Shown in pieces: positions 2,906 through 56,354 of a stretch of DNA of 64,000 nucleotides (position 1 is its first letter; each line of letters starts with the position of its first letter). Location of the stretch: assembly GCA_001029675.1 (NCBI GenBank), contig CP011210.1:192193-256192 (forward strand), written 5' to 3'. This DNA comes from Candidatus Beckwithbacteria bacterium GW2011_GWC1_49_16 (GTDB lineage: Bacteria; Patescibacteriota; Microgenomatia; UBA1400; CG1-02-47-37). The position numbers and the translations under genes are program-made. The notes under the pieces were generated by a model. That model worked only from the letters and a program-made list of their open reading frames with translations. It ran no database searches and was not told the DNA's origin.

Positions 2906-3970
2906 TTATTTCTTTTTAAAGAATTCTGTCAAGGATGATTTCCTCATAAAATTCCTACCAAAAAGGTAGAAGTTAATGATCAAAAACAGCGCCAGCAGGG
3001 CTTTGTAGGGTAGGACTAGAAACTTGATGGTAGCGGAAACGGTGTTGGTGGTATCGGCCGGGGTAATTTGGGCGGTGGCGGAGTAGAGGCCCAAAGGGAA
3101 AAGGGGATTCCAACCAACAACACACCCGGTGTGTAAGTTTCTTTCACACCGGGTGTGTTCGAGTGAAGTAAGCGATCTGGTGGAGCCGGCCAAAATGTTG
3201 TCTTCACGCAGAGGCAAGACGGCGCTTGACTGACCAAACATGTTGGTGACGGTGATTGAACCGACGGCTTTGAGTTTGGTTTGGGAGGTGTTTTTGACCC
3301 GGAGGGTAAAGCCGATGGGGTCGAAAGAATCCAATAAGGAGAGTCCTCGAAGGGAACCTTCAAGGACTCTCCTTGAAGGTCTGAACTCTTCTATTTTGGC
3401 GTTTCTGACCGGTTGGCCGTCGCGGGAAACGGTCAGCAGGATATTGGCGCCGATAGCGGCGCGGGAGAGGCTGCCCGAGCCGCCGATTAGGCCCTCGGTG
3501 TCGGAGTCGAAAAGAAAGGTTAAGGAGTGATCGGCGTCGGCAGCGGTTTCCGGGACGCGGATTTTCAAAACCAGCTCCTGGGTGGCGCCGGCGGCAAGCG
3601 CAAAGCGGGCGGGAAGATCAAGGTCGGCGTTTTGCAGGGAGAAATAGCTCACTGTCGGAGAAACTTCATTGGGGAGGACTTCGACGTGGCCGAGCTCGTC
3701 AGCCGGGCGGAAAGGGACGATCCTGGCGGTAATGTTGGTGTCGTCGCCCATATTTTTCAAGCGGTAAACTTGGGTGATGGCGGTGCCGGGTTTGATGGTG
3801 ACTTCCAAAAGCGGCGGCCAGATGGAAAGAGAGGTGGTTTGCCCGTAAGCGGCTGGCGCTGCGTAAACCGTAAACAGTAAACCGTAAACGGTAATTATCA
3901 GAGGTAAAAATAAATTACCGAATGTCGTTTTTAATGTTCCTCCATTAAGGTCCGACCTTTTTGTAGGCAT
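2906..3970 (-). CDS. cell-surface protein, paralog of 437..1429 (signal peptide plus C-terminal TM anchor)
   Basis: The 2906..4162 ORF is probably initiated at the internal Met (MPTKRSDL...) at 3970, giving signal peptide LPLIITVYGLLFTVYAAPAAYG. LEVTIKPGTAITQVYRLKN resembles LEVEALPGATLQETLKVSN of the paralog. C-terminal TM plus RKSSLTEFFKKK tail. Contains in-frame palindromic element at 3121..3157. Confidence 0.5.
   Translation of the reverse strand: MPTKRSDLNGGTLKTTFGNLFLPLIITVYGLLFTVYAAPAAYGQTTSLSIWPPLLEVTIKPGTAITQVYRLKNMGDDTNITARIVPFRPADELGHVEVLPNEVSPTVSYFSLQNADLDLPARFALAAGATQELVLKIRVPETAADADHSLTFLFDSDTEGLIGGSGSLSRAAIGANILLTVSRDGQPVRNAKIEEFRPSRRVLEGSLRGLSLLDSFDPIGFTLRVKNTSQTKLKAVGSITVTNMFGQSSAVLPLREDNILAGSTRSLTSLEHTRCERNLHTGCVVGWNPLFPLGLYSATAQITPADTTNTVSATIKFLVLPYKALLALFLIINFYLFGRNFMRKSSLTEFFKKK
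3121..3157. repeat. palindromic element variant CACACCCGGTGTG-taagtttcttt-CACACCGGGTGTG, in-frame in surface-protein gene
   Basis: Exact inverted 13-mers. Read on the minus strand as HTRCERNLHTGCV. Confidence 0.9.
3863..3897. repeat. (GTAAACN)x5 heptamer tandem repeat in signal-peptide-coding region
   Basis: gtaaacc gtaaaca gtaaacc gtaaacg gtaatta. Encodes ITVYGLLFTVY. Confidence 0.8.
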
Positions 3971-7763: not shown

Positions 7764-10310
7764 ATGAGTTTTGACCATAATAAAATCGAAGCCAAGTGGC
7801 GGAAGAAATGGCGGGAGTCTGGGCTATATAAGGTAGACCTTAAAGGCGCCAAAAAGCCCTTTTATAACTTAATGATGTTTCCATATCCTAGCGCCGAAGG
7901 GCTTCATGTGGGTAACATGTACGCTTTCACCGGGGCGGATTTTTACGGCCGGTTCCAGGCGATGCGGGGGCAAGAGGTGTTTGAGCCGATTGGGCTTGAC
8001 GGTTTTGGGATTCACAGCGAAAACTACGCCATCAAGATCGGCGCCCACCCGTCGCAGCAAGCCAAGGTGAGTCAGAAGCGCTTTTACGACCAACTATCCC
8101 GCATCGGTAACCGCTTTTCCTGGGAACAGCGTTTGGAGACTTACGATCCCGAGTACTACAAATGGACCCAGTGGCTGTTTATCAAGATGTTTGAGAAAGG
8201 GTTGGCGGTCAGGAAAAAATCGATGGTCAACTGGTGCCCGAGCTGTAAAACGGTTCTGGCCGACGAGCAGGTCGAGGGCGGGGTGTGTGAGCGGTGTAAG
8301 ACGCCGACGGTGAGAAAAGAGACCTATCAGTGGTTTTTCAAGATTACCGACTATGCCGACAGACTGCTTGGTAACATCGACAAGATCGACTGGCCGCAAA
8401 AGATTAAGACCGCCCAAAGGAATTGGATTGGTCGCAAAGAAGGCATTAACATCACTTACGAAATTAAAGGCAGCAAAAAAACAGTCACTTGTTTTACAAC
8501 CACGCCGGTGAATTTTGGCGCCACTTTTATTGTTATTGCTCCTGAACATGTGTTAGTAAAAGAAAGTAAGAACAAAAAAATCCAAGAATATGTCACTAAG
8601 GCACTGAAAAAAACTGAACAGCAGCGACAAATGGAAGGAAAAGAGAAAACCGGCGTTTTCACCGGGCTTTATGCTGTTAATCATGTCACCAAAAAAGAAA
8701 TTCCCATTTGGGTGGCAGATTTTGTCTTAAAAGACGTTGGCACTGGGGCGGTTCAGGGTTGCCCGGGGCATGATTTACGCGACTTTGAGTTTGCCAAGAA
8801 GTTTGGATTGCCGATTACACGGGTTGTGGTTGGTCCTGATGGGGACAGAAACGAAATTACCAGAAAGGAGCAAGTGATTCAGTCGGGAACGTCAGGAAAA
8901 ATGGTAAATTCAGACTTTTTGAACGGTATGGAGTTTAGTAAAGCAATGCAAAAAACCATGGATTACTTTGAAGAAAGGGGTTGGGGCGAAAGAGTGATTA
9001 GTTTTCACCTGCGCGATTGGCTCATATCCCGCCAACGCTACTGGGGGCCGCCGATACCGATGATTTTTTGTGATAAGTGCGAATGGCAGCCGGTGCCCGA
9101 GAAAGATTTGCCGGTGGAGTTGCCGTTCGTCAAAGACTATCAGCCTTTGGGCGAGGGTAAGGCGCCTTTGGAGAAAGCCCCGAAAGAGTGGCTTGAGGTC
9201 AAGTGCCCGAATTGCGGCGGGAAAGCCAGAAGAGAGACAGACGTCTCGGATACTTTTCTAGACTCAAGTTGGTATTTTTTACGTTATCCTTCGATTAAAT
9301 CCAATAAGGACAGTCTTCCCGGTACCGGAAAGACTGTCCTTAGGGAAAAACTGCCGTGGGATCAAGAGGTCACACGGCGCTGGCTGCCGGTCAACGCCTA
9401 CATTGGCGGCGCCGAGCACGCGGTGTTGCATCTTCTGTACTCGCGCTTTGTCTGGATGTGTTTAAGAGATTGGGGGTATTTGCCCAAAAGCCTGGGTGAC
9501 GAGCCGTTTCCGTTTTTGTATTCCCACGGCCTGTTAATCAAAGACGGTGCCAAGATGAGTAAAAGCCGCGGCAACGTGGTTATTCCTGACGAGTACATGG
9601 AAAAATTCGGCACCGACGCTTTGCGGATGTACTTGATGTTTATCGGCCCCTACGACCAGGGAGGGGATTTCCAAGATACGGGGATGATGGGGATGAGGAA
9701 GTTTTTGGATCGGGTGTGGCGGTTGGTGATTGCCATCCAGGACACTCCCGGAGTGAAAAATTCTGCCACTCCGGGAGTGTCTGAGGTGGGTCGCTTCCGG
9801 CATCAGACGGTAAAAAGAGTTACCCAGGCCATGGAAAACTTGCGCTACAACGTCGGTATCGCCGCTTTGATGGAGTATGTTAACTTCTTGGAATTTCACC
9901 TTAGATTACTCACTCCCGGAGTGAAAAATTCCTCCACTCCGGGAGTGGTTGTGGAAGCCGTCGAAACTTTAGTATTGCTGCTGGCGCCAATGGCACCGTT
10001 TATCAGCGAAGAGATGTGGCAGATGCTGCGCAAATCCGAAGCACGAAGCACGAAATTCGAATCCGTCCACCAGCAAGCTTGGCCGACTTTTGACGAAGAG
10101 AAAGCGCGCGCCGATAAAGTTGAAGTGGTGGTCCAGGTTAATGGCAAACTGCGCGCCCGGTTGAGCCTTGGTCGAGACGAAGCCCAAGACAAAGAGCAGG
10201 TGTTTAAGGCAGCCAAGTCAGAGGCGGCGGTCAAAAGATACCTTGAGAACAAAAAGCCGGTCAAGGAGATTTTTGTCAAGGGCAAGCTGGTTAACCTGGT
10301 GGTTAGATAA
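7764..10310 (+). CDS. leuS: leucyl-tRNA synthetase
   Basis: 848 aa with a class I HIGH-type motif (HVGN) and KMSKS (GAKMSKSRGN). Carries two in-frame palindromic inserts (TPGVKNSATPGV, TPGVKNSSTPGV) and a heptamer-repeat insert (SEARSTKFES). Confidence 0.95.
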   Translation: MSFDHNKIEAKWRKKWRESGLYKVDLKGAKKPFYNLMMFPYPSAEGLHVGNMYAFTGADFYGRFQAMRGQEVFEPIGLDGFGIHSENYAIKIGAHPSQQAKVSQKRFYDQLSRIGNRFSWEQRLETYDPEYYKWTQWLFIKMFEKGLAVRKKSMVNWCPSCKTVLADEQVEGGVCERCKTPTVRKETYQWFFKITDYADRLLGNIDKIDWPQKIKTAQRNWIGRKEGINITYEIKGSKKTVTCFTTTPVNFGATFIVIAPEHVLVKESKNKKIQEYVTKALKKTEQQRQMEGKEKTGVFTGLYAVNHVTKKEIPIWVADFVLKDVGTGAVQGCPGHDLRDFEFAKKFGLPITRVVVGPDGDRNEITRKEQVIQSGTSGKMVNSDFLNGMEFSKAMQKTMDYFEERGWGERVISFHLRDWLISRQRYWGPPIPMIFCDKCEWQPVPEKDLPVELPFVKDYQPLGEGKAPLEKAPKEWLEVKCPNCGGKARRETDVSDTFLDSSWYFLRYPSIKSNKDSLPGTGKTVLREKLPWDQEVTRRWLPVNAYIGGAEHAVLHLLYSRFVWMCLRDWGYLPKSLGDEPFPFLYSHGLLIKDGAKMSKSRGNVVIPDEYMEKFGTDALRMYLMFIGPYDQGGDFQDTGMMGMRKFLDRVWRLVIAIQDTPGVKNSATPGVSEVGRFRHQTVKRVTQAMENLRYNVGIAALMEYVNFLEFHLRLLTPGVKNSSTPGVVVEAVETLVLLLAPMAPFISEEMWQMLRKSEARSTKFESVHQQAWPTFDEEKARADKVEVVVQVNGKLRARLSLGRDEAQDKEQVFKAAKSEAAVKRYLENKKPVKEIFVKGKLVNLVVR
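9743..9779. repeat. palindromic element CACTCCCGGAGTG-aaaaattctgc-CACTCCGGGAGTG, in-frame in leuS
   Basis: Exact inverted 13-mers separated by 11 nt. Translated as TPGVKNSATPGV. Confidence 0.9.
9911..9947. repeat. palindromic element CACTCCCGGAGTG-aaaaattcctc-CACTCCGGGAGTG, in-frame in leuS
   Basis: Second copy 168 bp downstream of the first. Translated as TPGVKNSSTPGV. Confidence 0.9.
10033..10066. repeat. heptamer-type simple repeat insert (CGAAGCA x2.5) in leuS
   Basis: aaatccgaagcacgaagcacgaaattcgaatccg encodes SEARSTKFES. Related to the inserts in argS and truB. Confidence 0.7.
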
Positions 10311-15530: not shown

Positions 15531-17288
15531 ATGGTGATGAATCTTGAAGGGAAGATAAAAACAGCGATTGATAAAGTCTTGAAAGATTTTGGCGTTCCCG
15601 GAGGTGAATTTAAAGTGGAGCACCCCGAAAACGAGGCGCATGGGGATTATTCGGCCAACGTGGCTCTAGTTGCTGGAGGTGGGCGAGACTTAGCCGAGAA
15701 GATCACGGAGAAATTGAGAGCGGATAAAGGGTTGGAGGAAATTGCTTCGAAAATTAAGGTCGCAGGAGCCGGTTTTATTAATATATCAATCAAAACTGAC
15801 CATCTTATCACTCAAGCTGTTGAACTGCTAAAAGAAGGCTATATGGGGGGTAAAAGCACACGCCGCCAAGGCTTTGTGGGGCAAAGGATCATGGTCGAGT
15901 TTACTGACCCCAACCCTTTCAAGGAGTTTCATATCGGGCATCTTTACTCCAACATTGTCGGTGAGTCTTTGTGCCGGCTGCTTGAGGTGGAGGGAGCAGA
16001 GGTAAAGCGAGTTAATTATCAGGGCGATGTCGGTTTACATGTCGCCAAAGCCATTTGGGGCATGAAGCAGATGATCCAAAAAGATATAGATTTAAATAGT
16101 TTGAGTAAGAAATCTTTGCCTGAAAGGCAAAAGTTTATGGGTCAGGCTTACGCCATGGGGGCGACTGCCTACGAGGAAGACAAAAAGGCTAAAGAGGAGA
16201 TAGAGGTTTTAAATAAAAAGATTTACGAGCTTGATGATGACGTCAGGCAGTTATACGAGAAAGGTAGAGGTTGGAGCTTGGAGTATTTTGAGACGATTTA
16301 TAAGCGCTTGGGAACTAAGTTTGACGACTATTTTTTTGAAAGAGAAGTGGGTCAGGTGGGTTTAAAATTGGTTAAGGAGTTTTTGAAAAAAGGTGTCTTT
16401 GAAGAAAGCCAGGGGGCGGTGGTGTTTCCCGGAGAAAAGTATGGCCTTCATACCCGGGTGTTTGTCAATAAGCTAGGCCTGCCGACTTATGAAGCTAAGG
16501 ATTTGGGTCTGGCGCCGACCAAATACGGACGCTACCAATACGACCAATCGATTATCGTCACCGCCAACGAGATCGATGAGTACTTCAAGGTGGTAATTGC
16601 CGCTTTGAAAAAGATAAATCCTAAGCTGGGGAAGAAAACCCGCCACGTGTCGCACGGGATGGTCAAGCTGCCGGAGGGAAAGATGAGCTCGAGAACCGGC
16701 AAGATCGTCACCGGCGAGTGGCTGCTTGATGAAGCCCGCGCCAGAGCTTTGAAAATTATGGCGGAGGCAGAGATTAGTGAAGAGGAGAAAGAAATAATCG
16801 CCGAGCAGGTGGGCCAAGCGGCGGTCAAGTACGCGTTACTCAAAACCGGCATTGGCCAGGACGTGGTGTTTAACTTTGGCACCTCGGTATCGTTTGAGGG
16901 CAACTCCGGGCCGTATCTTCAATATACTTACGCCAGAGCGCAGAGCGTCTTGGCAAAATCCGAAACTCGAAGCACGAAGCACGAAAAAATTTCGGATTTC
17001 GGATTTCGGATTTCGGATTTAGCACCAGAGGAACTCGCAGTGCTGCGCTGGCTTTACCGCTACGGGGAAGTGGTGGATGAGGCGGCGGCGGAGTTGTCAC
17101 CCAACCTGGTAGCCAACTTCCTTTTCGAGCTAGCCCAGCGTTTCAACAGTTTTTACAATAAAATGCCGATTTTGAAAGCCAAAGACGAAAAGATTAAGAG
17201 TTTGCGTTTGCTACTGACGGCGGCGACGGCAGAGGTGGTTAAACGAGGTTTGTATCTTTTGGGGATTCAGTCCCCGGAGAAGATGTAG
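15531..17288 (+). CDS. argS: arginyl-tRNA synthetase
   Basis: HIGH motif (FHIGHLYS), Arg-tRNA synthetase core and DALR anticodon-binding C-terminus. Contains heptamer-repeat insert encoding ETRSTKHEKISDFGFRISD. Confidence 0.95.
   Translation: MVMNLEGKIKTAIDKVLKDFGVPGGEFKVEHPENEAHGDYSANVALVAGGGRDLAEKITEKLRADKGLEEIASKIKVAGAGFINISIKTDHLITQAVELLKEGYMGGKSTRRQGFVGQRIMVEFTDPNPFKEFHIGHLYSNIVGESLCRLLEVEGAEVKRVNYQGDVGLHVAKAIWGMKQMIQKDIDLNSLSKKSLPERQKFMGQAYAMGATAYEEDKKAKEEIEVLNKKIYELDDDVRQLYEKGRGWSLEYFETIYKRLGTKFDDYFFEREVGQVGLKLVKEFLKKGVFEESQGAVVFPGEKYGLHTRVFVNKLGLPTYEAKDLGLAPTKYGRYQYDQSIIVTANEIDEYFKVVIAALKKINPKLGKKTRHVSHGMVKLPEGKMSSRTGKIVTGEWLLDEARARALKIMAEAEISEEEKEIIAEQVGQAAVKYALLKTGIGQDVVFNFGTSVSFEGNSGPYLQYTYARAQSVLAKSETRSTKHEKISDFGFRISDLAPEELAVLRWLYRYGEVVDEAAAELSPNLVANFLFELAQRFNSFYNKMPILKAKDEKIKSLRLLLTAATAEVVKRGLYLLGIQSPEKM
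16965..17020. repeat. composite simple repeat in argS: CGAAGCA x2 followed by (TTCGGAT)x4, flanked by inverted AAATCCGAAA / TTTCGGATTT
   Basis: The tandem 7-mers and the inverted 10-mers can both be read directly from the sequence. The repeat is in-frame in argS. Confidence 0.8.
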
Positions 17289-18760: not shown

Positions 18761-20113
18761 TTAAATCAGGGAAGAGAGCAGGAATAAAAACAGCAGCCCC
18801 GGTTGAAGCGTCAGGGGGTAGTGATCGAAAAGGCCGAGGAAGAGAAGTAAGCCGTAAAGCGTAATCGGTAAGCTGTAATTTTTAGATTTTATCGCCCGGT
18901 AGAAAGGAGAAAAGATCAAGTAAAGGAAGCCGGCCAGTCCCAAAATTCCGGTTTCGGCCAGGATCAATAGATAGACGTTGTGGACCGGTTGTAAAAAGCG
19001 GGTGGTGGCGGGAATTAAGCCGTAGCGGTCCATGATGACGGTGAAGTTGTTCAGTCCGACCCCGGTGAGCGGGGATTCTTTAACCATGGACAGGGCCATT
19101 TGGGTTAACTGCGACCGGCGGCTGAAGGAAGATTGGGGGGCCAAAAAGCTCAAGTTTTGGGCAAAGACCAAAAACAGCAGTAAAACTCCGGCGTAGAAAG
19201 CGACTAGCTTGACAGCAACTGATTTCACTCCCGGAGTGAAAAATTCCTCCACTCCGGGAGTGGGATTACTAAGCCGGTCCTGCCAGAAAGAAAAGCGGGG
19301 CAGGTCTTTGATCAGGGCCAACTGTTTGGCGCGGAGCTTTTGTTTGAGCGAGTCGGTTTGAAGCAAAGTTGCTGCCGGCAGGCCGATTAACAAAAACCCC
19401 AGCCAGGCGGAGAGGGAAAAGGTGAGGAATAAGCTGGCTACGCCAGCGGTAATCAGTAATCCGTAATAGGTAGTGCGTAAAAAGTTGACCTTCAAGGATA
19501 AACCCTGAAGGTGCTGGCGGATAACTAGCGGCAGGGTGACGGCCAAAAAGCCGCCTAGAACGTTAGGATGGGGAGTGGTGCCCAAAGGCGGGACTTTGAG
19601 CGAGCCGTCAAACCAGGTGATTTTGTCGATACCCGGTGTCGCGTCGGTGTAGGGTTGTTCGCCCAGAAACCAAAAGCCAAAGATTGAAGACTGGTTTAAC
19701 CATTGAGTCAGAGCCAGAAGCGATTGGAATAAAACCGCCAGGCTTAAGGTTTTGGCAATTGAGGGAAGGTGGATTTTAAGGTCAATGTGGCGGCGGATCC
19801 AGAGGCTAAAAAGAGATAGCTCAAAAAATTTAAGCCATTTGTAGGCGGCCGGCACGAACGAGGCGGAAAAAATTACTGAAGGTAAAAGTAAAGCTAAAAA
19901 AACGGCCGTGGGGCCACGACCTTTTGGTCGGGACGAAGAACTAAACCACAGGCCAAGAAGTAAGAATATGAGAAAGTCGGTAAGATAGACGGTGGGGACA
20001 AGATAGTCGACCAGGGTGCCGGAGACGTATGATGAGGGCAGAATAAAGTGACGGGCAAGATTAGTGGGCAGAAGAAAGAGGATTAAATAGAAAAGCCGGT
20101 ATTGCCAGACCAT
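18761..20113 (-). CDS. polytopic membrane protein, possibly O-antigen ligase/polymerase-like
   Basis: More than 10 predicted TM helices. Contains in-frame palindromic element (TPGVEEFFTPGV) and two GTAANNN heptamer repeats (ITLYGLL, TTYYGLLIT). Confidence 0.35.
   Translation of the reverse strand: MVWQYRLFYLILFLLPTNLARHFILPSSYVSGTLVDYLVPTVYLTDFLIFLLLGLWFSSSSRPKGRGPTAVFLALLLPSVIFSASFVPAAYKWLKFFELSLFSLWIRRHIDLKIHLPSIAKTLSLAVLFQSLLALTQWLNQSSIFGFWFLGEQPYTDATPGIDKITWFDGSLKVPPLGTTPHPNVLGGFLAVTLPLVIRQHLQGLSLKVNFLRTTYYGLLITAGVASLFLTFSLSAWLGFLLIGLPAATLLQTDSLKQKLRAKQLALIKDLPRFSFWQDRLSNPTPGVEEFFTPGVKSVAVKLVAFYAGVLLLFLVFAQNLSFLAPQSSFSRRSQLTQMALSMVKESPLTGVGLNNFTVIMDRYGLIPATTRFLQPVHNVYLLILAETGILGLAGFLYLIFSPFYRAIKSKNYSLPITLYGLLLFLGLFDHYPLTLQPGLLFLFLLSSLI
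18844..18871. repeat. (GTAANNN)x4 heptamer repeat
   Basis: gtaaagc gtaatcg gtaagct gtaattt. Encodes ITLYGLL in a TM helix. Confidence 0.6.
19226..19262. repeat. palindromic element CACTCCCGGAGTG-aaaaattcctc-CACTCCGGGAGTG, in-frame in membrane protein gene
   Basis: Identical to the second leuS copy. Read on the minus strand as TPGVEEFFTPGV. Confidence 0.9.
19448..19482. repeat. (NGTAATN)x5 heptamer repeat
   Basis: ggtaatc agtaatc cgtaata ggtagtg cgtaaaa. Confidence 0.55.
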
Positions 20114-24539: not shown

Positions 24540-24612
24540 TCGGAGAGCCGGGATTCGAACCCGGGACCTCGTCGTCCCGAACGACGCGCGCTACCAACTG
24601 CGCTACTCTCCG
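24540..24612 (-). tRNA. tRNA-Pro (anticodon CGG)
   Basis: Hand-folded cloverleaf: acceptor CGGAGAG/CTCTCCG, D-arm GCGCAGTTGGTAGCGC, anticodon loop TTCGGGA, T-arm CCGGG-TTCGAAT-CCCGG. No encoded CCA. Confidence 0.85.
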
Positions 24613-24680: not shown

Positions 24681-24752
24681 TGCCCCCACCAGGAGTCGAA
24701 CCTGGATTAGAGGTTTAGGAAACCTCTGTTCTATCCATTAAACTATGGGAGC
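24681..24752 (-). tRNA. tRNA-Arg (anticodon CCU)
   Basis: Acceptor GCTCCCA/TGGGGGC, anticodon stem GAGGT/ACCTC with loop TTCCTAA, T-arm CCAGG-TTCGACT-CCTGG. Confidence 0.85.
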
Positions 24753-26379: not shown

Positions 26380-27525
26380 TTAATACTTGAAATTTAAGCT
26401 CGGTTGGCGGTCGAGCTTTTTAGGGTTTTTGACAAAGTCTTTTTTGAGGAATTTGAAGTAAGCAGCTACGGCGATCATGGCGGCGTTGTCGGTGAAGAGT
26501 TTTTTGGAAAAAGGCAGGTAGACGGGTAGGTTATGGCCGCGGGCGACGCGGCGCAGCTGGCGGCGGATGTAGAGATTAGAAATAACGCCGCCGCCCAAAA
26601 GGATGCCTTTAGGCTGGGTTTTTTTAATGGCAAGCTCGAGCTTGCCGGTCAAACTGTCGGCGACGGCTTTTTGGAAAGAGGCGGCCAGGTTGTGGGTGAA
26701 ATTTAAGCTAAGGGTCTGACCTTTTTTATTTTGGATGATATACAGAGCAGCGGTTTTAAGGCCGGAGAAAGAAAAGTTTAAGTCTTTGGAGTGCTGCATG
26801 GGTACGGGCAGGGGGATTTTGGCTATAGCCAGCGGCGAAGCTTTACGGGCCAGTTCCTCAATGATCGGGCCGCCGGGGTAGCCCAATTTAAGCATTTTGG
26901 CCAGTTTATCCAAGGCCTCGCCGGCAGCGTCGTCCAGAGTTTCGCCCAAAAGTTGATAACGGCCGATGGCGTGGACAAGAACAAGTTGGGTGTGGCCGCC
27001 GGAAACGAGGAGAGCTAGCAAGGGGAATTTGATAGACACACCCGGTGTGGGGGATTTCTTCACACCGGGTGTGTTGGGTAAGGCCAGGGGTGAAAGCAGA
27101 TGTCCTTCCATGTGGTTGACGGCGATTAGAGGCAGATGGAGGTAGGCGGCGAGCTTGCGGGCAGTAGCGATGCCGACTTCCAGGGCCGGGGCCAGGCCTG
27201 GGCCAACGGTGACGGCGATGGCGTCGAGAGAATCCGTCAAGGTCGGACCTTTCGCCTGCCGGCGAGCCCTGCTTGGCTGGCTGCCAGGCATTCCTTTTAA
27301 GGTCCGACCTTGCCTGCGCGCTCGCATCAGCGCCTCCCGCACCACATAGTCGATTTTTTCTTGGTGGGCGCGCTTGGCCAGATGGGGGACGACCCCGCCG
27401 TACTTTTTGTGGATGTTAATTTGGGAGGCGATGACGTTGGAGAGGATTTTGCGGCCGCGGCTGACGGCGGCGGCGGTTTCGTCGCAGGAAGTGTCGATGG
27501 CTAGAATTAAAGGCTGTTTCATCAA
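26380..27525 (-). CDS. tsaD: tRNA N6-adenosine threonylcarbamoyltransferase TsaD (Kae1/YgjD family)
   Basis: LILAIDTSCDETAAAV...GGVVPHLAKRAH N-terminal signature and GGGVISN C-terminal motif. Carries in-frame palindromic insert TPGVKKSPTPGV. Confidence 0.9.
   Translation of the reverse strand: MMKQPLILAIDTSCDETAAAVSRGRKILSNVIASQINIHKKYGGVVPHLAKRAHQEKIDYVVREALMRARRQGRTLKGMPGSQPSRARRQAKGPTLTDSLDAIAVTVGPGLAPALEVGIATARKLAAYLHLPLIAVNHMEGHLLSPLALPNTPGVKKSPTPGVSIKFPLLALLVSGGHTQLVLVHAIGRYQLLGETLDDAAGEALDKLAKMLKLGYPGGPIIEELARKASPLAIAKIPLPVPMQHSKDLNFSFSGLKTAALYIIQNKKGQTLSLNFTHNLAASFQKAVADSLTGKLELAIKKTQPKGILLGGGVISNLYIRRQLRRVARGHNLPVYLPFSKKLFTDNAAMIAVAAYFKFLKKDFVKNPKKLDRQPSLNFKY
27037..27073. repeat. 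palindromic element variant CACACCCGGTGTG-ggggatttctt-CACACCGGGTGTG, in-frame in tsaD
   Basis: Exact inverted 13-mers. Minus-strand reading gives TPGVKKSPTPGV. Confidence 0.9.
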
Positions 27526-37432: not shown

Positions 37433-38566
37433 ATGAAGTTATATAAAAGAAAGGTATTCTCTGTTATCCAACGGCTGGTGGAAAGAGAAAAGTCGTTGGT
37501 GATTACCGGTGGAAGACAGGTAGGTAAGTCATCGGTTTTGCTTTACCTAAAGGAGTGGTTAGAGCGTCAAGGTAAACGGACGGTTTTCTACGATTTGAAC
37601 TTTTCGGATGGGCCGTTTAACCTGGCAGCCGATTTAACCGCCAAGGGGGTAGGCGGCGACCAGCCGGTTTATGTTTTGGTAGATAACTGGCGGCCGGAAG
37701 CAGGCGGGGAGCTTGAGAAAAACTTTCATCTGGTGGCCGCCAGCGCGGTCAAAGCCTTTCTGCCCGCCTCGGCCCGGGCGGTGGAAGTGCTACCTTTGTC
37801 TTTTGCCGAGTTTTTAGAGTTTAAAGCGGCAGACCCAAAAGACGCGTCCCAATGGCCGGAGCTTTACCGGGAGTTTGTTAGCTACGGTGGTTTTCCGGCA
37901 GTGGTGCTGGAGCCGGTAGTGGAGCAAAAGAAGCAAGTTTTGTGGCAGATAGTGGATCTTTATTTAAGAAAAGACCTTAGCGATTTGGCCCGGATCAAGG
38001 ACCCTACTAAGTTTTACCAGCTGCTTTCGGCCCTGGCCGGCAGATCCGGTCAGGTTCTAGACATGATGGCTCTGACCCGGGAACTGAAAGTGTCTTTTCC
38101 CACCCTGAAAAAGTATCTGGCGATATTGGAGCAGACTTTACTGGTGCAGACGGTCAAACCTTACAGCCGCCAGCCGGAGAGGGAGATCAGCAAAAGCCCC
38201 AAGGTGTATTTTTTGGACAGCGGCCTGATGTCACTTTTATGGTTGAACCAGTTTTCAACCAAGATTCTTGAGCCGGTGTTTGCTACCAACGTCTTTGCCG
38301 AGTTGGTTAAGAAGGTGGGCCGGGAGGCGGTCGGCTTTTGGCGCACCAAAGCCGGGGCCGAGGTCGATTTTGTGGTTGAAAAGGGCGGCGGCGACCTGCC
38401 TGCCGGCAGGCAGATTTTGGCCGTTGAGGCCGAAGTCAACTTCGACCGCTTTAGCCCCAAAGACATCAATAGTTTCAAGCGCCGCTACGACCCCAAGCGC
38501 TGGCGGGTGATCGGGCTGACCGGAGAAAAAATGGCCAAAAACGGCTTTTACCCTTGGGAGATGTGA
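37433..38566 (+). CDS. AAA-family ATPase (AAA_14 plus DUF4143)
   Basis: Walker A VITGGRQVGKSSVLLYL and the DUF4143-type C-terminal region. Lies between the fibre-like genes. Confidence 0.65.
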   Translation: MKLYKRKVFSVIQRLVEREKSLVITGGRQVGKSSVLLYLKEWLERQGKRTVFYDLNFSDGPFNLAADLTAKGVGGDQPVYVLVDNWRPEAGGELEKNFHLVAASAVKAFLPASARAVEVLPLSFAEFLEFKAADPKDASQWPELYREFVSYGGFPAVVLEPVVEQKKQVLWQIVDLYLRKDLSDLARIKDPTKFYQLLSALAGRSGQVLDMMALTRELKVSFPTLKKYLAILEQTLLVQTVKPYSRQPEREISKSPKVYFLDSGLMSLLWLNQFSTKILEPVFATNVFAELVKKVGREAVGFWRTKAGAEVDFVVEKGGGDLPAGRQILAVEAEVNFDRFSPKDINSFKRRYDPKRWRVIGLTGEKMAKNGFYPWEM

Positions 38567-44391: not shown

Positions 44392-44749
44392 ACTGCCCAG
44401 CTACAAGGTTTACGAGGATGAGGAGTTCTTGGCTTTTTTGGATATTTTTCCCAAATCAACCGGTCACACTTTGGTGATTCCTAAAAAGCACGTGGAGTGG
44501 GTGTGGGACCTGCCTGCCGGCAGGCAGGTTACTCCGAATTTAGGCAAGTACTTTGAAGTAGTGGGTAAAATTGCCAAAAACCACAGGAAACTGGCGCCCG
44601 ACGGGATTGTCCGGTCGATCATCTGGGGCTGGGAAGTGCCTCATGCTCATATTCATCTTCTTCCGGGAAAAAGTAACGACCTTTCGGGTGAGAAGCTGGG
44701 TGACGAGAAAATGAAGCAGATACAAAGGCAGTTTAGCCTCAAAAAATGA
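44339..44749 (+). CDS. HIT family hydrolase
   Basis: CIFCQI...FLDIFPKSTGHTLVIPKKH...HAHIHLLP histidine triad. Confidence 0.85.
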   Translation: MIIGSMQECIFCQIVAGKLPSYKVYEDEEFLAFLDIFPKSTGHTLVIPKKHVEWVWDLPAGRQVTPNLGKYFEVVGKIAKNHRKLAPDGIVRSIIWGWEVPHAHIHLLPGKSNDLSGEKLGDEKMKQIQRQFSLKK

Positions 44750-45732
44750 GGCTCGCACCCAAGTTTTGGTGGGGACTGGGGCTGGTTTTAATCCTTCACG
44801 GAGTTATGTTTTGGGTCAAGCAGAGTCAAAACCCGCTCTGGTACCAGCAGGATAACTATGTGGGTTATGCCAGGGGGTTGATTGAGGGTGGCGGGATTGA
44901 CCAACCGTGGTTGTTTCCCGGGTTGGCGATGTTGATCGCTGCCGCGGCCAAGGCGGTCGGCAGCGTGGTGGTAGCGGCAACAGGGGTGGCGGCAATAAGC
45001 TTGGCGGCGATTTACGCTTTAGCTTACTTAATGACTTATGATTGGTTATTTGCCGCGATGATTAGCTTGTTTCCGCCGATAGTGTTTGAGCAGACGAGTA
45101 AAGTGAGTACGACCGGCTTAGTGGTGGCGGGCTGGCTTGGTGCCTACTACCTCTACAGTAAGCGGCGGGGCTATTGGGCCAGCTTGGTGACGGTTTTATC
45201 GGCTTTGGTGAGGCCGGTGGCGGTGATTTTGGGCGTAGCTTGGCTGATAGATTTAGGCACAAAGGGGAAGTATAAAGAGGCGTTGATTAACGGATTGATT
45301 TTGGGGTTGTTTCCCATGGGCTTGTGGCTGTTTAACCGGCAAGTGTTTGGCGAGGGGGTGTTTTATCAAGCAAAAATGTACCAAACTTTGGGGCCGGTGC
45401 GGGTGGGGATTGTTCAGTTTGGCAGGGACATTTTGCGGGCGGTTGATTGGGGCTACTGGCGGATTCTGGCTTCGGGTTTGACCTATTTGGGGCTGTCTTT
45501 GGTCTTGGTAGGGATGATAATAAAAAGCCGGGCCGAGGTTTTGATCAAGTGGTGGGCGGGGCTGACTTTGGTTTATGTTTTGGCAGTGGGGCCGGAGCCG
45601 CTGCTGGAGGAGTTTAGGCGTTACATTGCGGTTTTGTTTCCTTTGGGACTGGTGGTTTTATACCCGAGATTTAAGCCTTACCGGTTGGTCTTAGGAGTGC
45701 TGATGGTGATGTCTCTGGCGGCTTTTTGGTGA
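44746..45732 (+). CDS. hypothetical polytopic membrane protein
   Basis: About 9 TM helices. Possibly glycosyltransferase-C-like. Confidence 0.4.
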   Translation: MRLAPKFWWGLGLVLILHGVMFWVKQSQNPLWYQQDNYVGYARGLIEGGGIDQPWLFPGLAMLIAAAAKAVGSVVVAATGVAAISLAAIYALAYLMTYDWLFAAMISLFPPIVFEQTSKVSTTGLVVAGWLGAYYLYSKRRGYWASLVTVLSALVRPVAVILGVAWLIDLGTKGKYKEALINGLILGLFPMGLWLFNRQVFGEGVFYQAKMYQTLGPVRVGIVQFGRDILRAVDWGYWRILASGLTYLGLSLVLVGMIIKSRAEVLIKWWAGLTLVYVLAVGPEPLLEEFRRYIAVLFPLGLVVLYPRFKPYRLVLGVLMVMSLAAFW

Positions 45733-46775
45733 GGCGGGGTTTTGAGGTTGACCAAGACAACGCGGGCGCGTGATTTTTGAGCCAGAGTTAGCAGCGGTTT
45801 TAGGGTGCGGCCGGCCCACTCGACGGCGGCGACGGTTTTGGTTTTGAGGCGATCTTCAAGATGAAGCTGATAAAACTCCTCGATGTGACTAAGCCGCCAA
45901 GTGTCAAGGTGTAAAAACTTGCCGAAAACTTTATAGCGGCGGAAGGGGTATTCTCTTTCGATGGTGTAGGTGGGCGAAACGATGGTTTGAGGGATTTTAA
46001 GAAACCGGCCGATGCCTTTGGCAAACTGGGTTTTGCCCGAGCCAAGGTCACCAATGAGCAAAAACAGCAAGGGTTTTTTCTGTAAATCGTTCCAGTGTGC
46101 CAGCATCAGTTTTTGGGCCAAGTCGCTTGTTTCTTGAGGAGAGTGGGTGGTAACACTTTCCGCACTCCCGGAGTGGGGGAATTTTTCACTCCGGGAGTGA
46201 AGGAGTTTAATTTTGCCTTCGCGCAGAATCAGCGGATCATCCAGAGTGGTATCGACCACGGTGGAGGCCGGGCGGCGGGGGAGTTTACCAACATCAATAA
46301 TAAAATCAATCAAACTTTGCTGTTTTCGGCTGGTGTGTTTCAAAAGTTGGGAGATGGAATAAGGCTTGGGTTTGTAGGAGACATTGGCAGAAGTGGCGGT
46401 GATGGGGCGTCCCAGCCTGCCAGCGAGCGCCAGCGCTACCGGGTGATCAGGAATGCGGATCCCCAGAGTGCCGGTTTCTGACTCCACTCCCGGGGCGACT
46501 TTGCCCCGGCCCCACGACACCACAGTCAACGGTCCGGGTAAAAACTTTCTGTATAAGTTTTTAGCAGAGGTATTTAGTTTGACATATTTTGATGCCATGG
46601 TTTGGTCAGCGACGGCCACTGATAAAGGTTTGCCTTCGCGGCGGGATTTGTAGGCAAGTAATTTGGCGACCGCCTTTTTGCTGGTGGCGTCGACGCCGGC
46701 ACCGTAACACGTTTCGGTGGGGTAGATCACCAGGCCGTGGGCTTTTAAGACTTTGACGGCTTGGGTGATTTCCAT
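45678..46775 (-). CDS. fused L-threonylcarbamoyladenylate synthase TsaC (YrdC domain) and TsaE (YjeE P-loop) protein
   Basis: N-terminus VIYPTETCYGAGVDA...GIRIPDHPVALALAGRLGRPITATSAN is the YrdC domain. C-terminus LLFLLIGDLGSGKTQFAKGI...SPTYTI...HLDTWRL is TsaE. The palindromic insert (HSRSEKFPHSGSAE) sits in the inter-domain linker. Confidence 0.8.
   Translation of the reverse strand: MEITQAVKVLKAHGLVIYPTETCYGAGVDATSKKAVAKLLAYKSRREGKPLSVAVADQTMASKYVKLNTSAKNLYRKFLPGPLTVVSWGRGKVAPGVESETGTLGIRIPDHPVALALAGRLGRPITATSANVSYKPKPYSISQLLKHTSRKQQSLIDFIIDVGKLPRRPASTVVDTTLDDPLILREGKIKLLHSRSEKFPHSGSAESVTTHSPQETSDLAQKLMLAHWNDLQKKPLLFLLIGDLGSGKTQFAKGIGRFLKIPQTIVSPTYTIEREYPFRRYKVFGKFLHLDTWRLSHIEEFYQLHLEDRLKTKTVAAVEWAGRTLKPLLTLAQKSRARVVLVNLKTPPHQKAARDITISTPKTNR
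46163..46199. repeat. palindromic element CACTCCCGGAGTG-ggggaattttt-CACTCCGGGAGTG, in-frame at the TsaC/TsaE junction
   Basis: Exact inverted 13-mers separated by an 11-nt spacer. Confidence 0.9.
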
Positions 46776-48082
46776 TACTTAAGGTTAATCGAGTACAGAT
46801 TGGGGGGCTGGTTTGAACCGCCGTTTAAGGAGGCCAGAATTATCAGCCTGGAGCCGTTGGGCCAGGGATAGGCAAAGTCGTCGGAAAAAGGGCCGGCGTA
46901 GACGGTATCCTGGTTGGTGCCGTCGTATTCACCGATAACGATTTTACCCTCCTGGACTAAAATGTAGTGGCGGGAATCGGGGAACCACTGGACGGGCTGG
47001 AAGTGAATCGGGCTGTAGCGGTGGGAAAGAGTTTCGAGGGAGGAATCTTTCACTCCGGGAGTGTCAGTTGCAGGCGCAGCTGCCAGCCAGAAATTTTTGT
47101 CTTCTTCCAAGTCATAGATGTAAATGTTGTCTTTTTCAAGGTTGCGCCTTTGAACTTGGGTGGAGGAGGCTGGTACCGGCGGGATTAAGTTCTCTGGGAT
47201 GGTAAGAGTTTCCACAGCGGTGTACATCAGCTTGTCTTCGTCGGGTGACCAGTAGACGGCTCGGGCCGACTCGGTGGCAACTTTTTGCATAAATTCGGGC
47301 AGAAGGACTAGCCGTTCGTGGTCTTTTTTATCCAAAAGCTCGTGCCATTCTGAAAGGGTTACCGGCAGCCTGGCGGTGGCGTCTTTTAGGGTGGCGATGT
47401 CATTGAGGCTTGATACGGAAAGGAGAATGTTACGCTCGTCCGGCTGATTAAGGTTGACGCTAACCAGGATTTGGGATGAGTCGGGCGACCAGGTGAGACG
47501 GGCAACGGTAAAGTCAAAGTCCGGGTGGGGCCGGGAGATTTGCCGGGGCTCGGAGTTGAAGCCAAAGGGGCGGTCGAAAAGGTCTAAAACGTAGAGGCCA
47601 TTTTTGTCGTTGGTGGTGGCGTTGCCGACGGCAAAGGCGATCTTCTGGCCGTCGGGCGAGGGGGTGAGATTTAAAGCTCCGGAAAAAGTCAGGGGTTTTA
47701 AGTCGGGGACAGAGGGGAAGAGCCGGGCGTTGGTTTGGGCGACCAGTTCTGCCTCCAAAACCAAAGTTTTTTCCCAGGGAATGTAGCCGTCTTGGGCGAT
47801 TTTGACCCGGTACTGGCCCGGGGGCAAGTTTAAGGTGTCGTCGGTGGCGGTGGTCAACTTGTCGTTTAAAAAGACGCTGGCACCGCGGGGTACGGAGTTG
47901 GCGGCGAGCAACCCCGTGCCCTGTAAGGCCCGACTAGCCAGCGACGGCCGGTAGCCCCGGGCAAGCCTGATGGCAAAGTAAGTGCCGGTGACAAAAAACA
48001 AGACGGCCACGATGACGATCAAAAGCCTTGGGGTGCGCTGGAACATGGTAGCGGTATTATACCTTAATTTATAATCAGCCAA
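46775..48082 (-). CDS. PEGA-domain plus TolB-like beta-propeller repeat protein, N-terminal TM anchor
   Basis: PEGA motif (RGASVFLNDKLTTATDDTLNLPPGQYRVKIAQDGYIPWEKTL) and repeated WSPDxxxL propeller blades. Contains a half-site of the palindromic element (TPGVKDSS). Confidence 0.55.
   Translation of the reverse strand: MADYKLRYNTATMFQRTPRLLIVIVAVLFFVTGTYFAIRLARGYRPSLASRALQGTGLLAANSVPRGASVFLNDKLTTATDDTLNLPPGQYRVKIAQDGYIPWEKTLVLEAELVAQTNARLFPSVPDLKPLTFSGALNLTPSPDGQKIAFAVGNATTNDKNGLYVLDLFDRPFGFNSEPRQISRPHPDFDFTVARLTWSPDSSQILVSVNLNQPDERNILLSVSSLNDIATLKDATARLPVTLSEWHELLDKKDHERLVLLPEFMQKVATESARAVYWSPDEDKLMYTAVETLTIPENLIPPVPASSTQVQRRNLEKDNIYIYDLEEDKNFWLAAAPATDTPGVKDSSLETLSHRYSPIHFQPVQWFPDSRHYILVQEGKIVIGEYDGTNQDTVYAGPFSDDFAYPWPNGSRLIILASLNGGSNQPPNLYSINLK
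47050..47062. repeat. solo half-site CACTCCGGGAGTG of the palindromic element
   Basis: Followed by ...gcaggcgca..., which also occurs in the spacer of the GT4 copy. Confidence 0.7.
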
Positions 48083-55190: not shown

Positions 55191-56354
55191 ATGATAATCG
55201 GCATTGATGCGTCGAGGGCGTATAGCAAAGACCGGGCCGGGGTGGAGAATTATTCCAATGAGTTAATCTGGGAGATGGTCAGGTTGCCGGAAGCAAAAAG
55301 CCATCAGTTTCGGCTTTATGTCCGGGCGGGGGCAAAGGTAGATGATGAGGTGAGGGGAAAAGAAAATGTCGAGGTAGTGGAGATCCCCTGGCCGAGGTTG
55401 TGGACGCAAGGGGGGTTGGCGTTGGAGTGTTTGGTGCGGCCGCCGGACGTTTTGTTTATTCCGGCTCACACTTTGCCGGTAATAAGAAGGTCGAGTTTGA
55501 AAACAGTGGTCACCATTCACGGCGTCGAGTACGAGTATTTGCCCGAGTATTACCGTTGGCCGCAAAAACTTTATCTTAATCGTTCCACCGAGTACGCGGT
55601 TGAGAGAGCCGACAAAATCATTGCTGTTTCCAATTGGGTTAAAAAGGAGTTGGTTAGTCGCTTAGGAGGGGATGAGAAGAAGATTCAAGTGATTTATGAG
55701 GGGGTAGGAAGAAGGTTTTTGGCCGCGGCAGAAACGGGACTTAATAAAAAGTTTTTCCGCCAAGTCAAGCACAAGTACGGTTTGCCGGACAGCTACTTGT
55801 TGTTTGTGGGCACAATCCAGCCGAGAAAGAACCTGGAGAAGTTGATTGAGGCGTTTGCGAAGGTAATACACTCCGGGAGTGTGCCGCAGGCGCAACACCA
55901 CTCCGGGAGTGAACCGCATTTAGTCATTGCCGGGAAAAAGGGCTGGATGTACCAGGAGATTTACGCCGCGCCGAAAAAGTTTGGCGTGGCCGACAAGGTC
56001 AAGTTTATCGGCCGGGTGGCCGATTACGACTTACCGGCGGTTTATCAAGGGGCGGAGGCGCTGGTTTATCCGAGTCTAATGGAGGGTTTTGGCTTGCCGG
56101 TGTTGGAAGCGTTTACTTTAGGCATTCCGGTTATCACTTCCGATCGCGGAGCGCTAAAAGAAGTCGCGGCCGCCGCCGCTTTACAGATAGATCCGGAAAA
56201 TGTCAGTCATTTAGCAGACGCGATCGGTTTGGTGCTAAAAAACCGGCAGTTGCGCGAGGGTTTAAGGGAAAAAGGCCTGGGACGGGCTCGAGAGTTTTCT
56301 TGGCAAAAAGCCGCCCTAGCCACTTTGAGCCTGGTCACCGATGTGGTAAAATAG
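55191..56354 (+). CDS. glycosyltransferase family 4 (GT-B)
   Basis: GTIQPRKNLEKLIEAF and YPSLMEGFGLPVLEAFTLGIPVITSDRGALKEV (the EX7E region). Carries a palindromic-element variant encoding HSGSVPQAQHHSGSE. Confidence 0.85.
   Translation: MIIGIDASRAYSKDRAGVENYSNELIWEMVRLPEAKSHQFRLYVRAGAKVDDEVRGKENVEVVEIPWPRLWTQGGLALECLVRPPDVLFIPAHTLPVIRRSSLKTVVTIHGVEYEYLPEYYRWPQKLYLNRSTEYAVERADKIIAVSNWVKKELVSRLGGDEKKIQVIYEGVGRRFLAAAETGLNKKFFRQVKHKYGLPDSYLLFVGTIQPRKNLEKLIEAFAKVIHSGSVPQAQHHSGSEPHLVIAGKKGWMYQEIYAAPKKFGVADKVKFIGRVADYDLPAVYQGAEALVYPSLMEGFGLPVLEAFTLGIPVITSDRGALKEVAAAAALQIDPENVSHLADAIGLVLKNRQLREGLREKGLGRAREFSWQKAALATLSLVTDVVK
55869..55911. repeat. palindromic-element variant: CACTCCGGGAGTG x2 in direct orientation with 17-nt spacer, in-frame in GT4 gene
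   Basis: cactccgggagtg-tgccgcaggcgcaacac-cactccgggagtg. Confidence 0.8.

Follow-up and report, generated by a model that had tools for sequence, protein, structure and literature searches.

What does a palindromic DNA repeat do in the middle of a gene that encodes two enzymes? In a 64,000-nucleotide (nt) stretch of the genome of Candidatus Beckwithbacteria bacterium GW2011_GWC1_49_16 (contig CP011210.1, positions 192,193 to 256,192; hereafter the window), the open reading frame (ORF) tsaCE joins two components of the N6-threonylcarbamoyladenosine (t6A) pathway for an essential tRNA modification, the threonylcarbamoyl-AMP (TC-AMP) synthase TsaC (YrdC) and the P-loop ATPase TsaE (YjeE), and a 37-nt palindromic element lies in the linker between them. 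The locus raises two questions, namely whether the domains belong to one polypeptide and whether the palindrome helped to join them or settled in a linker that was already there. Our analysis makes it very probable that tsaCE encodes an old and genuine bifunctional fusion, and that the hairpin occupied its existing linker later, as one copy of a dispersed family of coding palindromes. The fusion is ordinary for its clade and the element family is the more surprising part. The main features, with proteins numbered in amino acids (aa), are:

45678..46775, minus strand: tsaCE ORF, encoding the 365-aa TsaC-TsaE fusion protein (from the ORF and Pfam/NCBIfam)
46215..46751, minus strand: TsaC/YrdC domain (threonylcarbamoyl-AMP synthase), aa 9-187
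46146..46214, minus strand: inter-domain linker, aa 188-210, the sole internal low-confidence stretch in the AlphaFold2 model
45795..46145, minus strand: TsaE P-loop ATPase domain, aa 211-327
46163..46199, no strand assigned: 37-nt palindromic element in the tsaCE linker (arms 46163-46175 and 46187-46199, spacer 46176-46186)

One polypeptide with TsaC and TsaE domains

The tsaCE frame starts with an ATG, overlaps the stop codon of the upstream PEGA-domain gene by 1 nt and has no internal stop across all 365 aa. The single polypeptide claimed when this DNA was first read from its letters alone (hereafter the original prediction) is therefore borne out, with neither a stop nor a frameshift in the linker. 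The protein is 100% identical to one of Candidatus Beckwithbacteria bacterium GW2011_GWB1_47_15 (Microgenomates group, Patescibacteria), and the exact 365-aa sequence is present on 49 independent contigs from several sources. Every full-length member of its 90% cluster is 365 aa long, and no insertion polymorphism of the linker element was found within that cluster. Identity over 49 contigs together with this uniform length excludes an assembly artefact or frameshift for practical purposes.

Both halves are matched by curated models. Pfam Sua5_yciO_yrdC (PF01300) covers aa 9-187 (E 4.5e-45; 153.7 bits vs a cut-off of 25.1) and Pfam TsaE (PF02367) covers aa 211-327 (E 4.1e-24; 85.4 bits vs 26.6). 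The NCBIfam equivalogs for L-threonylcarbamoyladenylate synthase (TIGR00057; 170.4 bits vs a curated cut-off of 123.2) and for TsaE (TIGR00150; 69.7 bits vs 60.1) are also exceeded, and the domain assignments made from the letters alone are thereby upheld. Conservation of motifs was judged over two sets of 70 and 43 diverse sequences. Within the TsaC active-site motifs KxR and S/T-x-N, K43 and T128-S129-A130-N131 are invariant and R46 is at least 90% conserved. The invariant residues of the TsaE domain are those of Walker A (G242-T249; G242, G245 and G247-K248-T249), S267-P268, H289-x-D291-x-W293 and E319-W320, W293 standing in place of the tyrosine of the family's HxDxYR-type motif.

The AlphaFold2 model is confident for both domains (predicted local distance difference test score, pLDDT, 91.9; predicted template modelling score, pTM, 0.84), and its only internal low segment is the insert, with a mean pLDDT of 54 at aa 191-200 and values below 50 at aa 198-200. 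The N-terminal domain superposes on YrdC/YciO (1hru, 1k7j; TM 0.80-0.81) and the C-terminal domain on TsaE/YdiB/HI0065 (5np9, 1htw, 6s84_B; TM 0.74-0.77). The best whole-chain Foldseek matches are Sua5-type structures (6f89, 9dg5) with a root-mean-square deviation of 13-15 A, and no PDB chain with both TsaC and TsaE domains was found. An identification of TsaCE as Sua5/TsaC2 was rejected because its C-terminal half is TsaE; Pfam detects no SUA5 domain, and only the Sua5_yciO_yrdC and TsaE models match. Profiles, motifs and predicted fold place TsaCE in both the TsaC and the TsaE family.

A fusion shared by a whole lineage

The original prediction noted that tsaC and tsaE are separate genes in most bacteria. 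This is true generally, but in this lineage the fusion is the norm and is not special to the genome under study. The survey drew on at least 120 homologues among the matches listed, with 47-72% identity to TsaCE, and both Pfam domains are present in all 120. A scan of one genome per species gave 80 loci with a match across both halves (44-66% identity), which carry the names Beckwith-, Woese-, Shapiro-, Chisholm-, Roizman-, Pace- and Dojkabacteria or that of generic Patescibacteria. When the TsaE half was searched library-wide, fusions made up 42 of the best 150 representatives at 50% identity clustering; they measure 350-450 aa, their TsaE stretch begins near residue 205-300, and 42/42 match both Pfam models. 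The fusion is thus conserved throughout a class-level lineage of ultra-small bacteria (Microgenomates/Patescibacteria), mostly without the linker element. No standalone or second copy of tsaC or tsaE was found in the 64-kb window and the sampled loci (designated by L numbers), where hidden Markov models (HMMs) built here were followed by Pfam on candidate ORFs.

The gene for TsaD lies immediately 3' of tsaCE on the same strand in 50 of the 80 genomes and within 2 kb in 14 more, which is good genomic evidence that the fused protein is a pathway enzyme. The window, L147 and L148 have a convergent HIT-family gene downstream of tsaCE instead, and tsaD is separated:

26380..27525, minus strand: tsaD (Pfam TsaD, E 3e-77), gene of the pathway's partner enzyme, 18 kb downstream of tsaCE

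An apparent TsaC-TsaE-TsaD triple fusion was rejected as an artefact of overlapping stop-to-stop ORFs, there being no ORF with all three domains. Separately, one 442-aa protein (P0259) has an N-terminal TsaE domain (residues 38-128), lacks TsaC and shows no further Pfam match at E <= 1e-5. No description of a natural TsaC-TsaE fusion was found in the literature searched, t6A reviews included; the fusion is already visible in precomputed database domain annotations.

The element as an in-frame insertion in the linker

On the plus strand the element reads CACTCCCGGAGTG-GGGGAATTTTT-CACTCCGGGAGTG and on the coding strand CACTCCCGGAGTG-AAAAATTCCCC-CACTCCGGGAGTG, a perfect 13-bp inverted repeat with an 11-nt spacer. 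It sits between the two Pfam domain envelopes, and the palindrome of about 37 bp reported at the domain junction is confirmed there, at 46163-46199 (aa 193-204 of the linker). It comprises codons 193-204 and the first base of codon 205 and encodes HSRSEKFPHSGS; the peptide region of the insert includes LLHSRSEKFPHSGSAES in TsaCE and TPGVK..TPGV in TsaD and LeuRS. As RNA, the linker copy is predicted to fold with -28.7 kcal/mol (z = -6.9), and other copies with -26.7 to -39.2 kcal/mol (z -4.5 to -8).

The TsaE domain stays in frame only when all 37 nt are read. A census of the window and all sampled loci yielded 77 non-redundant full elements, 70 of which lie within open stretches of at least 100 aa. 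Their reading phases are used 33 (HSRS...HSGS), 4 and 40 (TPGV...TPGV) times, and it is in the rare phase that a spacer beginning with A produces TGA. The frame requirement in TsaCE, the bias of phase and the open frames argue that the elements are translated and not removed.

The relatives of TsaCE bear on the order of events. Measured from DTT to the Walker A motif (GxLGxGKT), the spacing is 53 aa in most Beckwithbacteria vs 64 aa in the window protein. In a neighbour-joining tree from which the linker was left out, the window protein groups with five proteins (P0004, P0006, P0009, P0014 and P0015) that have a core linker of 10-11 aa and no insert. Linker DNA of the two nearest relatives, L147 and L148, is plain and holds no palindrome, and comparison with it suggests that the element replaced about 4 codons, which with 2 further codons leaves about 10 codons gained on balance. 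In more distant Microgenomates the linkers are ordinary, and about 1.1 Mb of loci from these shows terminator-like hairpins only; in the sampled loci the element family is confined to Beckwithbacteria-level relatives, with none in distant Microgenomates. The plain, non-palindromic linker of the nearest relatives argues that the linker was there before the element arrived in it. These comparisons place the element after the fusion, which it neither splits nor created.

A dispersed family within the window

The linker copy has company. The window holds six full copies, one decayed copy and one atypical copy in seven genes. The additional ones, to which no strand is assigned, are:

3121..3157: copy with CACACC arms in a 418-aa gene of unknown function
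9743..9779: copy in leuS, LeuRS aa 661; orthologues are without it
9911..9947: second copy in leuS, LeuRS aa 717; a clean 12-codon insertion vs orthologues
19226..19262: copy in a Wzy_C/O-antigen-ligase-like gene, encoding TPGVEEFFTPGV
27037..27073: variant element in tsaD with CACACC arms, encoding TPGVKKSPTPGV
47027..47063: decayed copy in the PEGA-domain gene next to tsaCE; arm 47051-47063 and spacer intact, other arm degenerate
55869..55911: atypical copy in a GT4 glycosyltransferase gene; a pair of G-centre arms in direct repeat around a 17-nt spacer

With at most one mismatch, the 13-mer arm occurs at 11 places in the window (22 matches, counting both strands) vs about 0.04 expected by chance. 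Perfect hairpins with a stem of at least 10 and a loop of 3-25 number 16 vs 1.1 expected, and 16/16 lie within long open frames.

The element in tsaD forms a 10-aa insertion relative to T. maritima TsaD, just past the HMEGH metal motif. The original prediction that tsaD, 19 kb away, carries the same element holds as far as family membership goes (the distance is 19.1 kb), but the tsaD copy is a variant and not identical. Its arms are CACACC.GGTGTG vs CACTCC.GGAGTG in the linker, its spacer differs at 2/11 positions and it is read in a different phase. The CACACC/GGTGTG arms, found in two window copies including that of tsaD, are a compensated variant of CACTCC/GGAGTG. ORFs obtained from L004, L058 and L076 contain nothing that corresponds to the stretch around the 19226-19262 copy. 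The atypical pair at 55869-55911 consists of two identical CACTCCGGGAGTG arms and encodes HSGSVPQAQHHSGS, and the L001 orthologue has a CACCCC element at the same place. The leuS gene (window 7764-10310, plus strand) contains three separate palindromic inserts, all in frame, at 9305-9342, 9743-9779 and 9911-9947.

Recurrence and turnover in related genomes

Beyond the window, the exact 13-N11-13 pattern was found in 62 metagenomic stretches, and viral contigs gave 0 matches. The architecture does not vary: a C-centre arm precedes a G-centre arm, with an arm period of 24 nt. The arms themselves differ in sequence from genome to genome and within a genome (CACTCC, CACACC, CACCCC, CACCTC, CATTCC), and spacer types are specific to a genome and common to its dispersed copies.

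The TsaCE linker itself is occupied in different ways. At the same position, L001 carries CCACCCCGGGGTGG-AATATTTAAA-CACCCCGGGGTGG and L003 carries CATTCCCGGAATG-AAATCTGCAAA-CATTCCGGGAATG; L005 has a CACTCC copy and a second hairpin, L004 and L006 have solo arms, L008 has a 26-nt palindrome, and L009 and L010 have hairpins of a second palindrome family. Peptides with two arms appear in this linker at no fewer than six separate places in the tree, and solo-arm peptides in more. A full element in the TsaD loop is found at the same site and in the same phase in four genomes, each with its own arm and spacer type; between the window and L004 the spacers differ at 8/11 positions while the flanks stay alignable, and the L005 spacer encloses an 18-nt palindrome belonging to a third family. 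Three variants, CACACC, CACCTC and CACTCC, occupy one site of the 418-aa protein (window 3121-3157; L091 8136-8172; L104 2224-2260), in two reading phases. The first arm of the L091 copy runs over conserved codons of the native gene (CTC ACC TCC GAG), a hint that element formation may be seeded by arm-like native sequence.

The second family has the form AAGGnnnGTCCTYGWAGG...loop...reverse complement. In the window, the 418-aa gene, leuS (at aa 517) and tsaD each contain an in-frame copy, the one in tsaD making an insertion of about 30 aa (aa 67-96). At the leuS aa 517 site, the L120 orthologue has a CACTCC element instead, and L097 and L040 have nothing. The third family, CTGCCTGC(C)GGCAGGCAG, lies in frame in a HIT-family gene and another ORF. 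The sites of both families are:

Window 3336-3374, 9305-9342 and 27238-27312; L001 239-280 and 4596-4635; L010 TsaCE linker: second family
Window 38396-38413 and 44508-44529; L002 about 7569; spacer of the L005 tsaD element: third family

Comparison of strain pairs at least 98% identical revealed no presence/absence difference of the 37-nt element, and only an 18-nt palindrome indel, the duplication of a 22-nt palindromic unit and the swap of a block of about 85 nt. The 18-nt third-family palindrome is present in L002 and absent from L001 and L007, which are 99.3-99.7% identical to L002; this 18-mer is identical to the one nested in the spacer of the L005 tsaD element. The block swap affects an 804-aa MerR/HTH gene (L001 about 4566-4650 vs L002 and L007, about 99% identical), where an in-frame block consists of a solo CACCTC arm and a family-2 hairpin in one strain and of a different family-2 variant in the other. 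Recurrence at the same sites, together with these strain differences, agrees better with repeated insertion into, or replacement at, permissive or arm-like sites than with plain vertical descent.

The 22-nt unit, TGTTGACACCGTTGTCAACAAG, is single or tandemly doubled in near-identical contigs (L089 2645 vs L090 and L134), a copy-number difference that shows that palindromic units duplicate locally. Positions 1-7947 of L143 (contig C687J35174_10019242) comprise about 2.9 copies of a 2,749-nt unit at 99.9% identity, with one element per unit, which may be either tandem repetition or the concatemeric assembly of a small circular molecule.

Comparison with known systems

Fusions of t6A-related proteins are known from several sources, among them archaeal Kae1-Bud32, Pandoravirus TsaN (TsaD-TsaC-SUA5-TcdA), M. 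genitalium TsaC/HemK and TobZ/HypF (YrdC-like and Kae1-like), and such joining has been read as a sign of functional coupling and perhaps of a hand-over of the intermediate (PMC4615747; PMC10484737; PMC9654439). Like TsaCE, these proteins unite pathway partners or a YrdC-like domain in one chain; unlike it, none joins TsaC to TsaE. In Sua5/TsaC2, too, a YrdC-type TC-AMP synthase domain at the N-terminus is followed in the same chain by a flexible linker and another alpha/beta domain, but the latter is SUA5 there and a TsaE P-loop ATPase in TsaCE. Against the literature searched, TsaC-TsaE is a new combination among t6A-pathway fusions; it is ordinary for its clade.

The elements resemble Rickettsia palindromic elements (RPEs) in behaviour and doublets of repetitive extragenic palindromic (REP) sequences, the REPINs, in form, but they miss the defining features of both. 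RPEs are dispersed, lie in frame in unrelated and often essential genes, and are translated at permissive positions (PMC10969869). The 37-nt elements likewise form a multi-copy, dispersed palindromic repeat that keeps the frame of unrelated ORFs in a small genome. What sets them apart is size and host, since RPEs are about 100-150 bp long and known from Rickettsia, whereas the present elements have 37 nt, perfect 13-bp arms and a patescibacterial host; two main reading phases, solo-arm forms and rapid replacement at orthologous sites also distinguish them. REP/REPIN sequences are described as a short GC-rich palindromic unit occurring in singlets and in inverted doublets that form a longer hairpin (PMC3116915; PMC3733652). 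Singlets (as solo arms) and inverted doublets occur here too, but REPs are extragenic and bear a GTAG/CGTC tag, whereas nearly all the elements described here are intragenic and their arms start with CAC or CAT. REPs also have cognate RAYT (Y1 HUH) transposases; the E. coli RayT query, a single-sequence search of limited reach, detected no homologue in the 1.68 Mb of window and loci.

Transposable elements of the miniature inverted-repeat kind (MITEs) are small non-autonomous repeats with terminal inverted repeats that sometimes lie within genes, and to that extent they are similar; at the 37-nt elements no target-site duplication was seen, and no parent insertion sequence (IS) was identified for them. 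A length of 37 nt is also far below the usual size of MITEs. Mitochondrial genes of Nematomorpha contain perfect inverted repeats of up to 284 bp in coding sequence, with both arms translated (PMC6649704). These differ in being organellar and much longer, and they do not form a dispersed 13-11-13 family. No description of coding palindromic repeats in Patescibacteria was found in the literature searched.

Proposed explanation and alternatives

We propose that the N-terminal TsaC domain would make TC-AMP and that the C-terminal TsaE domain would act as a P-loop ATPase docking on TsaD, or on TsaD with TsaB; TsaE docks at the TsaD-TsaB interface in competition with tRNA (PMC10484737). The fusion would date from deep within the Microgenomates/Patescibacteria lineage, where its gene usually lies directly upstream of tsaD. 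At a much later time, on the branch to this Beckwithbacteria genome, a 37-nt hairpin repeat would have occupied the existing disordered linker, where the ribosome would read through it as about 12 extra hydrophilic residues. The tether may bring the source of TC-AMP to TsaD at each docking or reset step of TsaE, and a long disordered linker would both let the two domains reach their sites and serve as a safe landing place for extra residues.

The element would be one copy of a dispersed and fast-turning-over family of coding palindromes whose copies persist only where a protein loop or linker is permissive. Copying by arm homology is suggested by a GC-rich 13-bp stem with an A/T-rich loop, near-palindromic arms, solo and doublet forms, genome-specific spacers and arm-like seeds. 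The elements may thus spread and be replaced by copying seeded in this way, through template switching or gene conversion and not through a dedicated transposase, and selection would then retain those products that keep a frame open and sit at a permissive position in the protein.

Several observations weigh against this account. No mobilising enzyme was found when E. coli RayT was used in a phmmer search of the ORFs of 1.68 Mb (window and loci), a single-sequence query of limited reach. Conserved flanking target-site duplications are not seen at the elements in general, and no related IS was identified. A clean empty site for the window copy was not found, the nearest relatives being only 72% identical in DNA, and no target-site duplication is seen at the linker element, the boundaries of which are not fixable at that identity. 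The occupation of one linker site on six or more separate occasions could reflect function or targeting and not mere tolerance. Finally, a tsaB-like ORF was not detected in the window or loci, again with HMMs built here and Pfam on candidates.

Among the alternatives, the 13-11-13 elements might be protein-binding or recombination sites acting at the DNA level, which lie within genes because intergenic space is scarce; the two inverted 13-bp arms would be binding elements on either side of an asymmetric spacer, as in the core sites of recombinases. Their invariant arm order and 24-nt arm period, the spacer types that dispersed copies of a genome have in common and the location of all 16 perfect window hairpins in open frames agree with this idea. 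We consider it unlikely, since no candidate binding protein or recombinase was identified and since arms so variable, between genomes and even within one, would require a binder that is tolerant or co-evolves with them. The 11-nt spacer, longer than in known tyrosine-recombinase core sites, also counts against it.

It is likewise improbable that the linker element is ancient and vertically inherited, having evolved in place with compensatory arm changes and been lost precisely in many relatives. Elements or solo arms do occur at this position in many Beckwithbacteria, and a 24-nt arm period would permit in-frame collapse to a solo arm; against this stand the plain linker DNA of the nearest relatives, spacers at orthologous sites that follow each genome's own type and differ at 8/11 positions between alignable flanks, and the different phases of the elements at another orthologous site, that of the 418-aa protein.

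Selection of the linker hairpin at the RNA level, as a translational pause between domains that assists co-translational folding or as a signal for mRNA stability or processing, has a small chance of being correct. With -27 to -39 kcal/mol (z -4.5 to -8) the hairpins are highly stable, and different palindromes have come to lie at the same linker position in many Beckwithbacteria, on the six or more occasions already noted. However, there is no hairpin there in most fusions, those of the closest relatives and of all distant Microgenomates among them, and the same elements also occur inside single domains (the TsaD loop after HMEGH, LeuRS). A terminator and promoter scan of 45400-47000 gave nothing on the coding strand, where no U-tract is present, and antisense matches at chance level only; an Rfam scan of the whole window gave no match at the elements. 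The hairpin was accordingly rejected as an intrinsic terminator or a member of a known RNA family.

The original prediction had left it undecided whether the element was tolerated in a pre-existing linker or contributed to the fusion. The first possibility is supported and the second is refuted by the element-less fusions and the plain linkers of the nearest relatives. That the element generated the fusion, its insertion or a recombination event joining separate tsaC and tsaE genes and removing a stop/start junction, is accordingly very improbable: its position exactly between the domain envelopes and the recurrence of palindromes at the TsaC-TsaE junction in several Beckwithbacteria would suit such an origin, but the 120 listed homologues, the 80 genomes and the 42 clusters at 50% are fused mostly without it, and a family restricted to Beckwithbacteria-level relatives is missing from the very proteins closest to that of the window. 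The idea of two genes, or of a sequencing or assembly artefact (a hidden frameshift or stop in the linker, or misassembly at the hairpin), can be dismissed, for although strong hairpins can cause sequencing errors, none is directly evident here, the ORF is uninterrupted, the identical protein recurs on 49 contigs, full-length cluster members are all 365 aa and the same architecture is seen in hundreds of independent assemblies.

Beyond an old fusion with a later insert, a broader reading is possible, which we offer tentatively. The 13-11-13 elements and the two other coding-palindrome families might together form an undescribed class of ultra-small, translated mobile DNA in Patescibacteria. 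They might be copied or replaced in a sequence-directed manner, seeded at arm-like sequences and possibly without a transposase, re-occupy the same loops of essential proteins (TsaCE, TsaD, LeuRS) again and again, and be a general source of lineage-specific peptide insertions in the proteins of these bacteria. As a separate part of this reading, the conserved TsaC-TsaE tether would imply that TsaD receives TC-AMP while TsaE is docking.

Implications

The route of TC-AMP, a labile intermediate, from TsaC to TsaD and the purpose of the TsaE ATPase cycle are debated for the bacterial t6A pathway. A TsaC-TsaE tether encoded beside tsaD, with a disordered linker that tolerates 10-28 extra residues, amounts to a natural experiment on both, and it predicts delivery of TsaC to TsaD via TsaE docking. 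The translated 37-nt hairpin repeats, in turn, bear on how DNA that is selfish or forms structures can survive within essential genes when intergenic space is almost nil. Their recurrence at orthologous sites, genome-specific spacers, nesting and the differences between near-identical strains point to an active turnover mechanism, and the elements may explain part of the unusual peptide insertions in proteins of the Candidate Phyla Radiation.

Other features of the window

The sole Rfam matches in the window are two tRNA genes, at 24540-24612 and 24681-24752 on the minus strand. An imperfect inverted repeat of TTTCGGA-type short repeats lies at 16953-17023, inside a 585-aa ORF (15531-17288).

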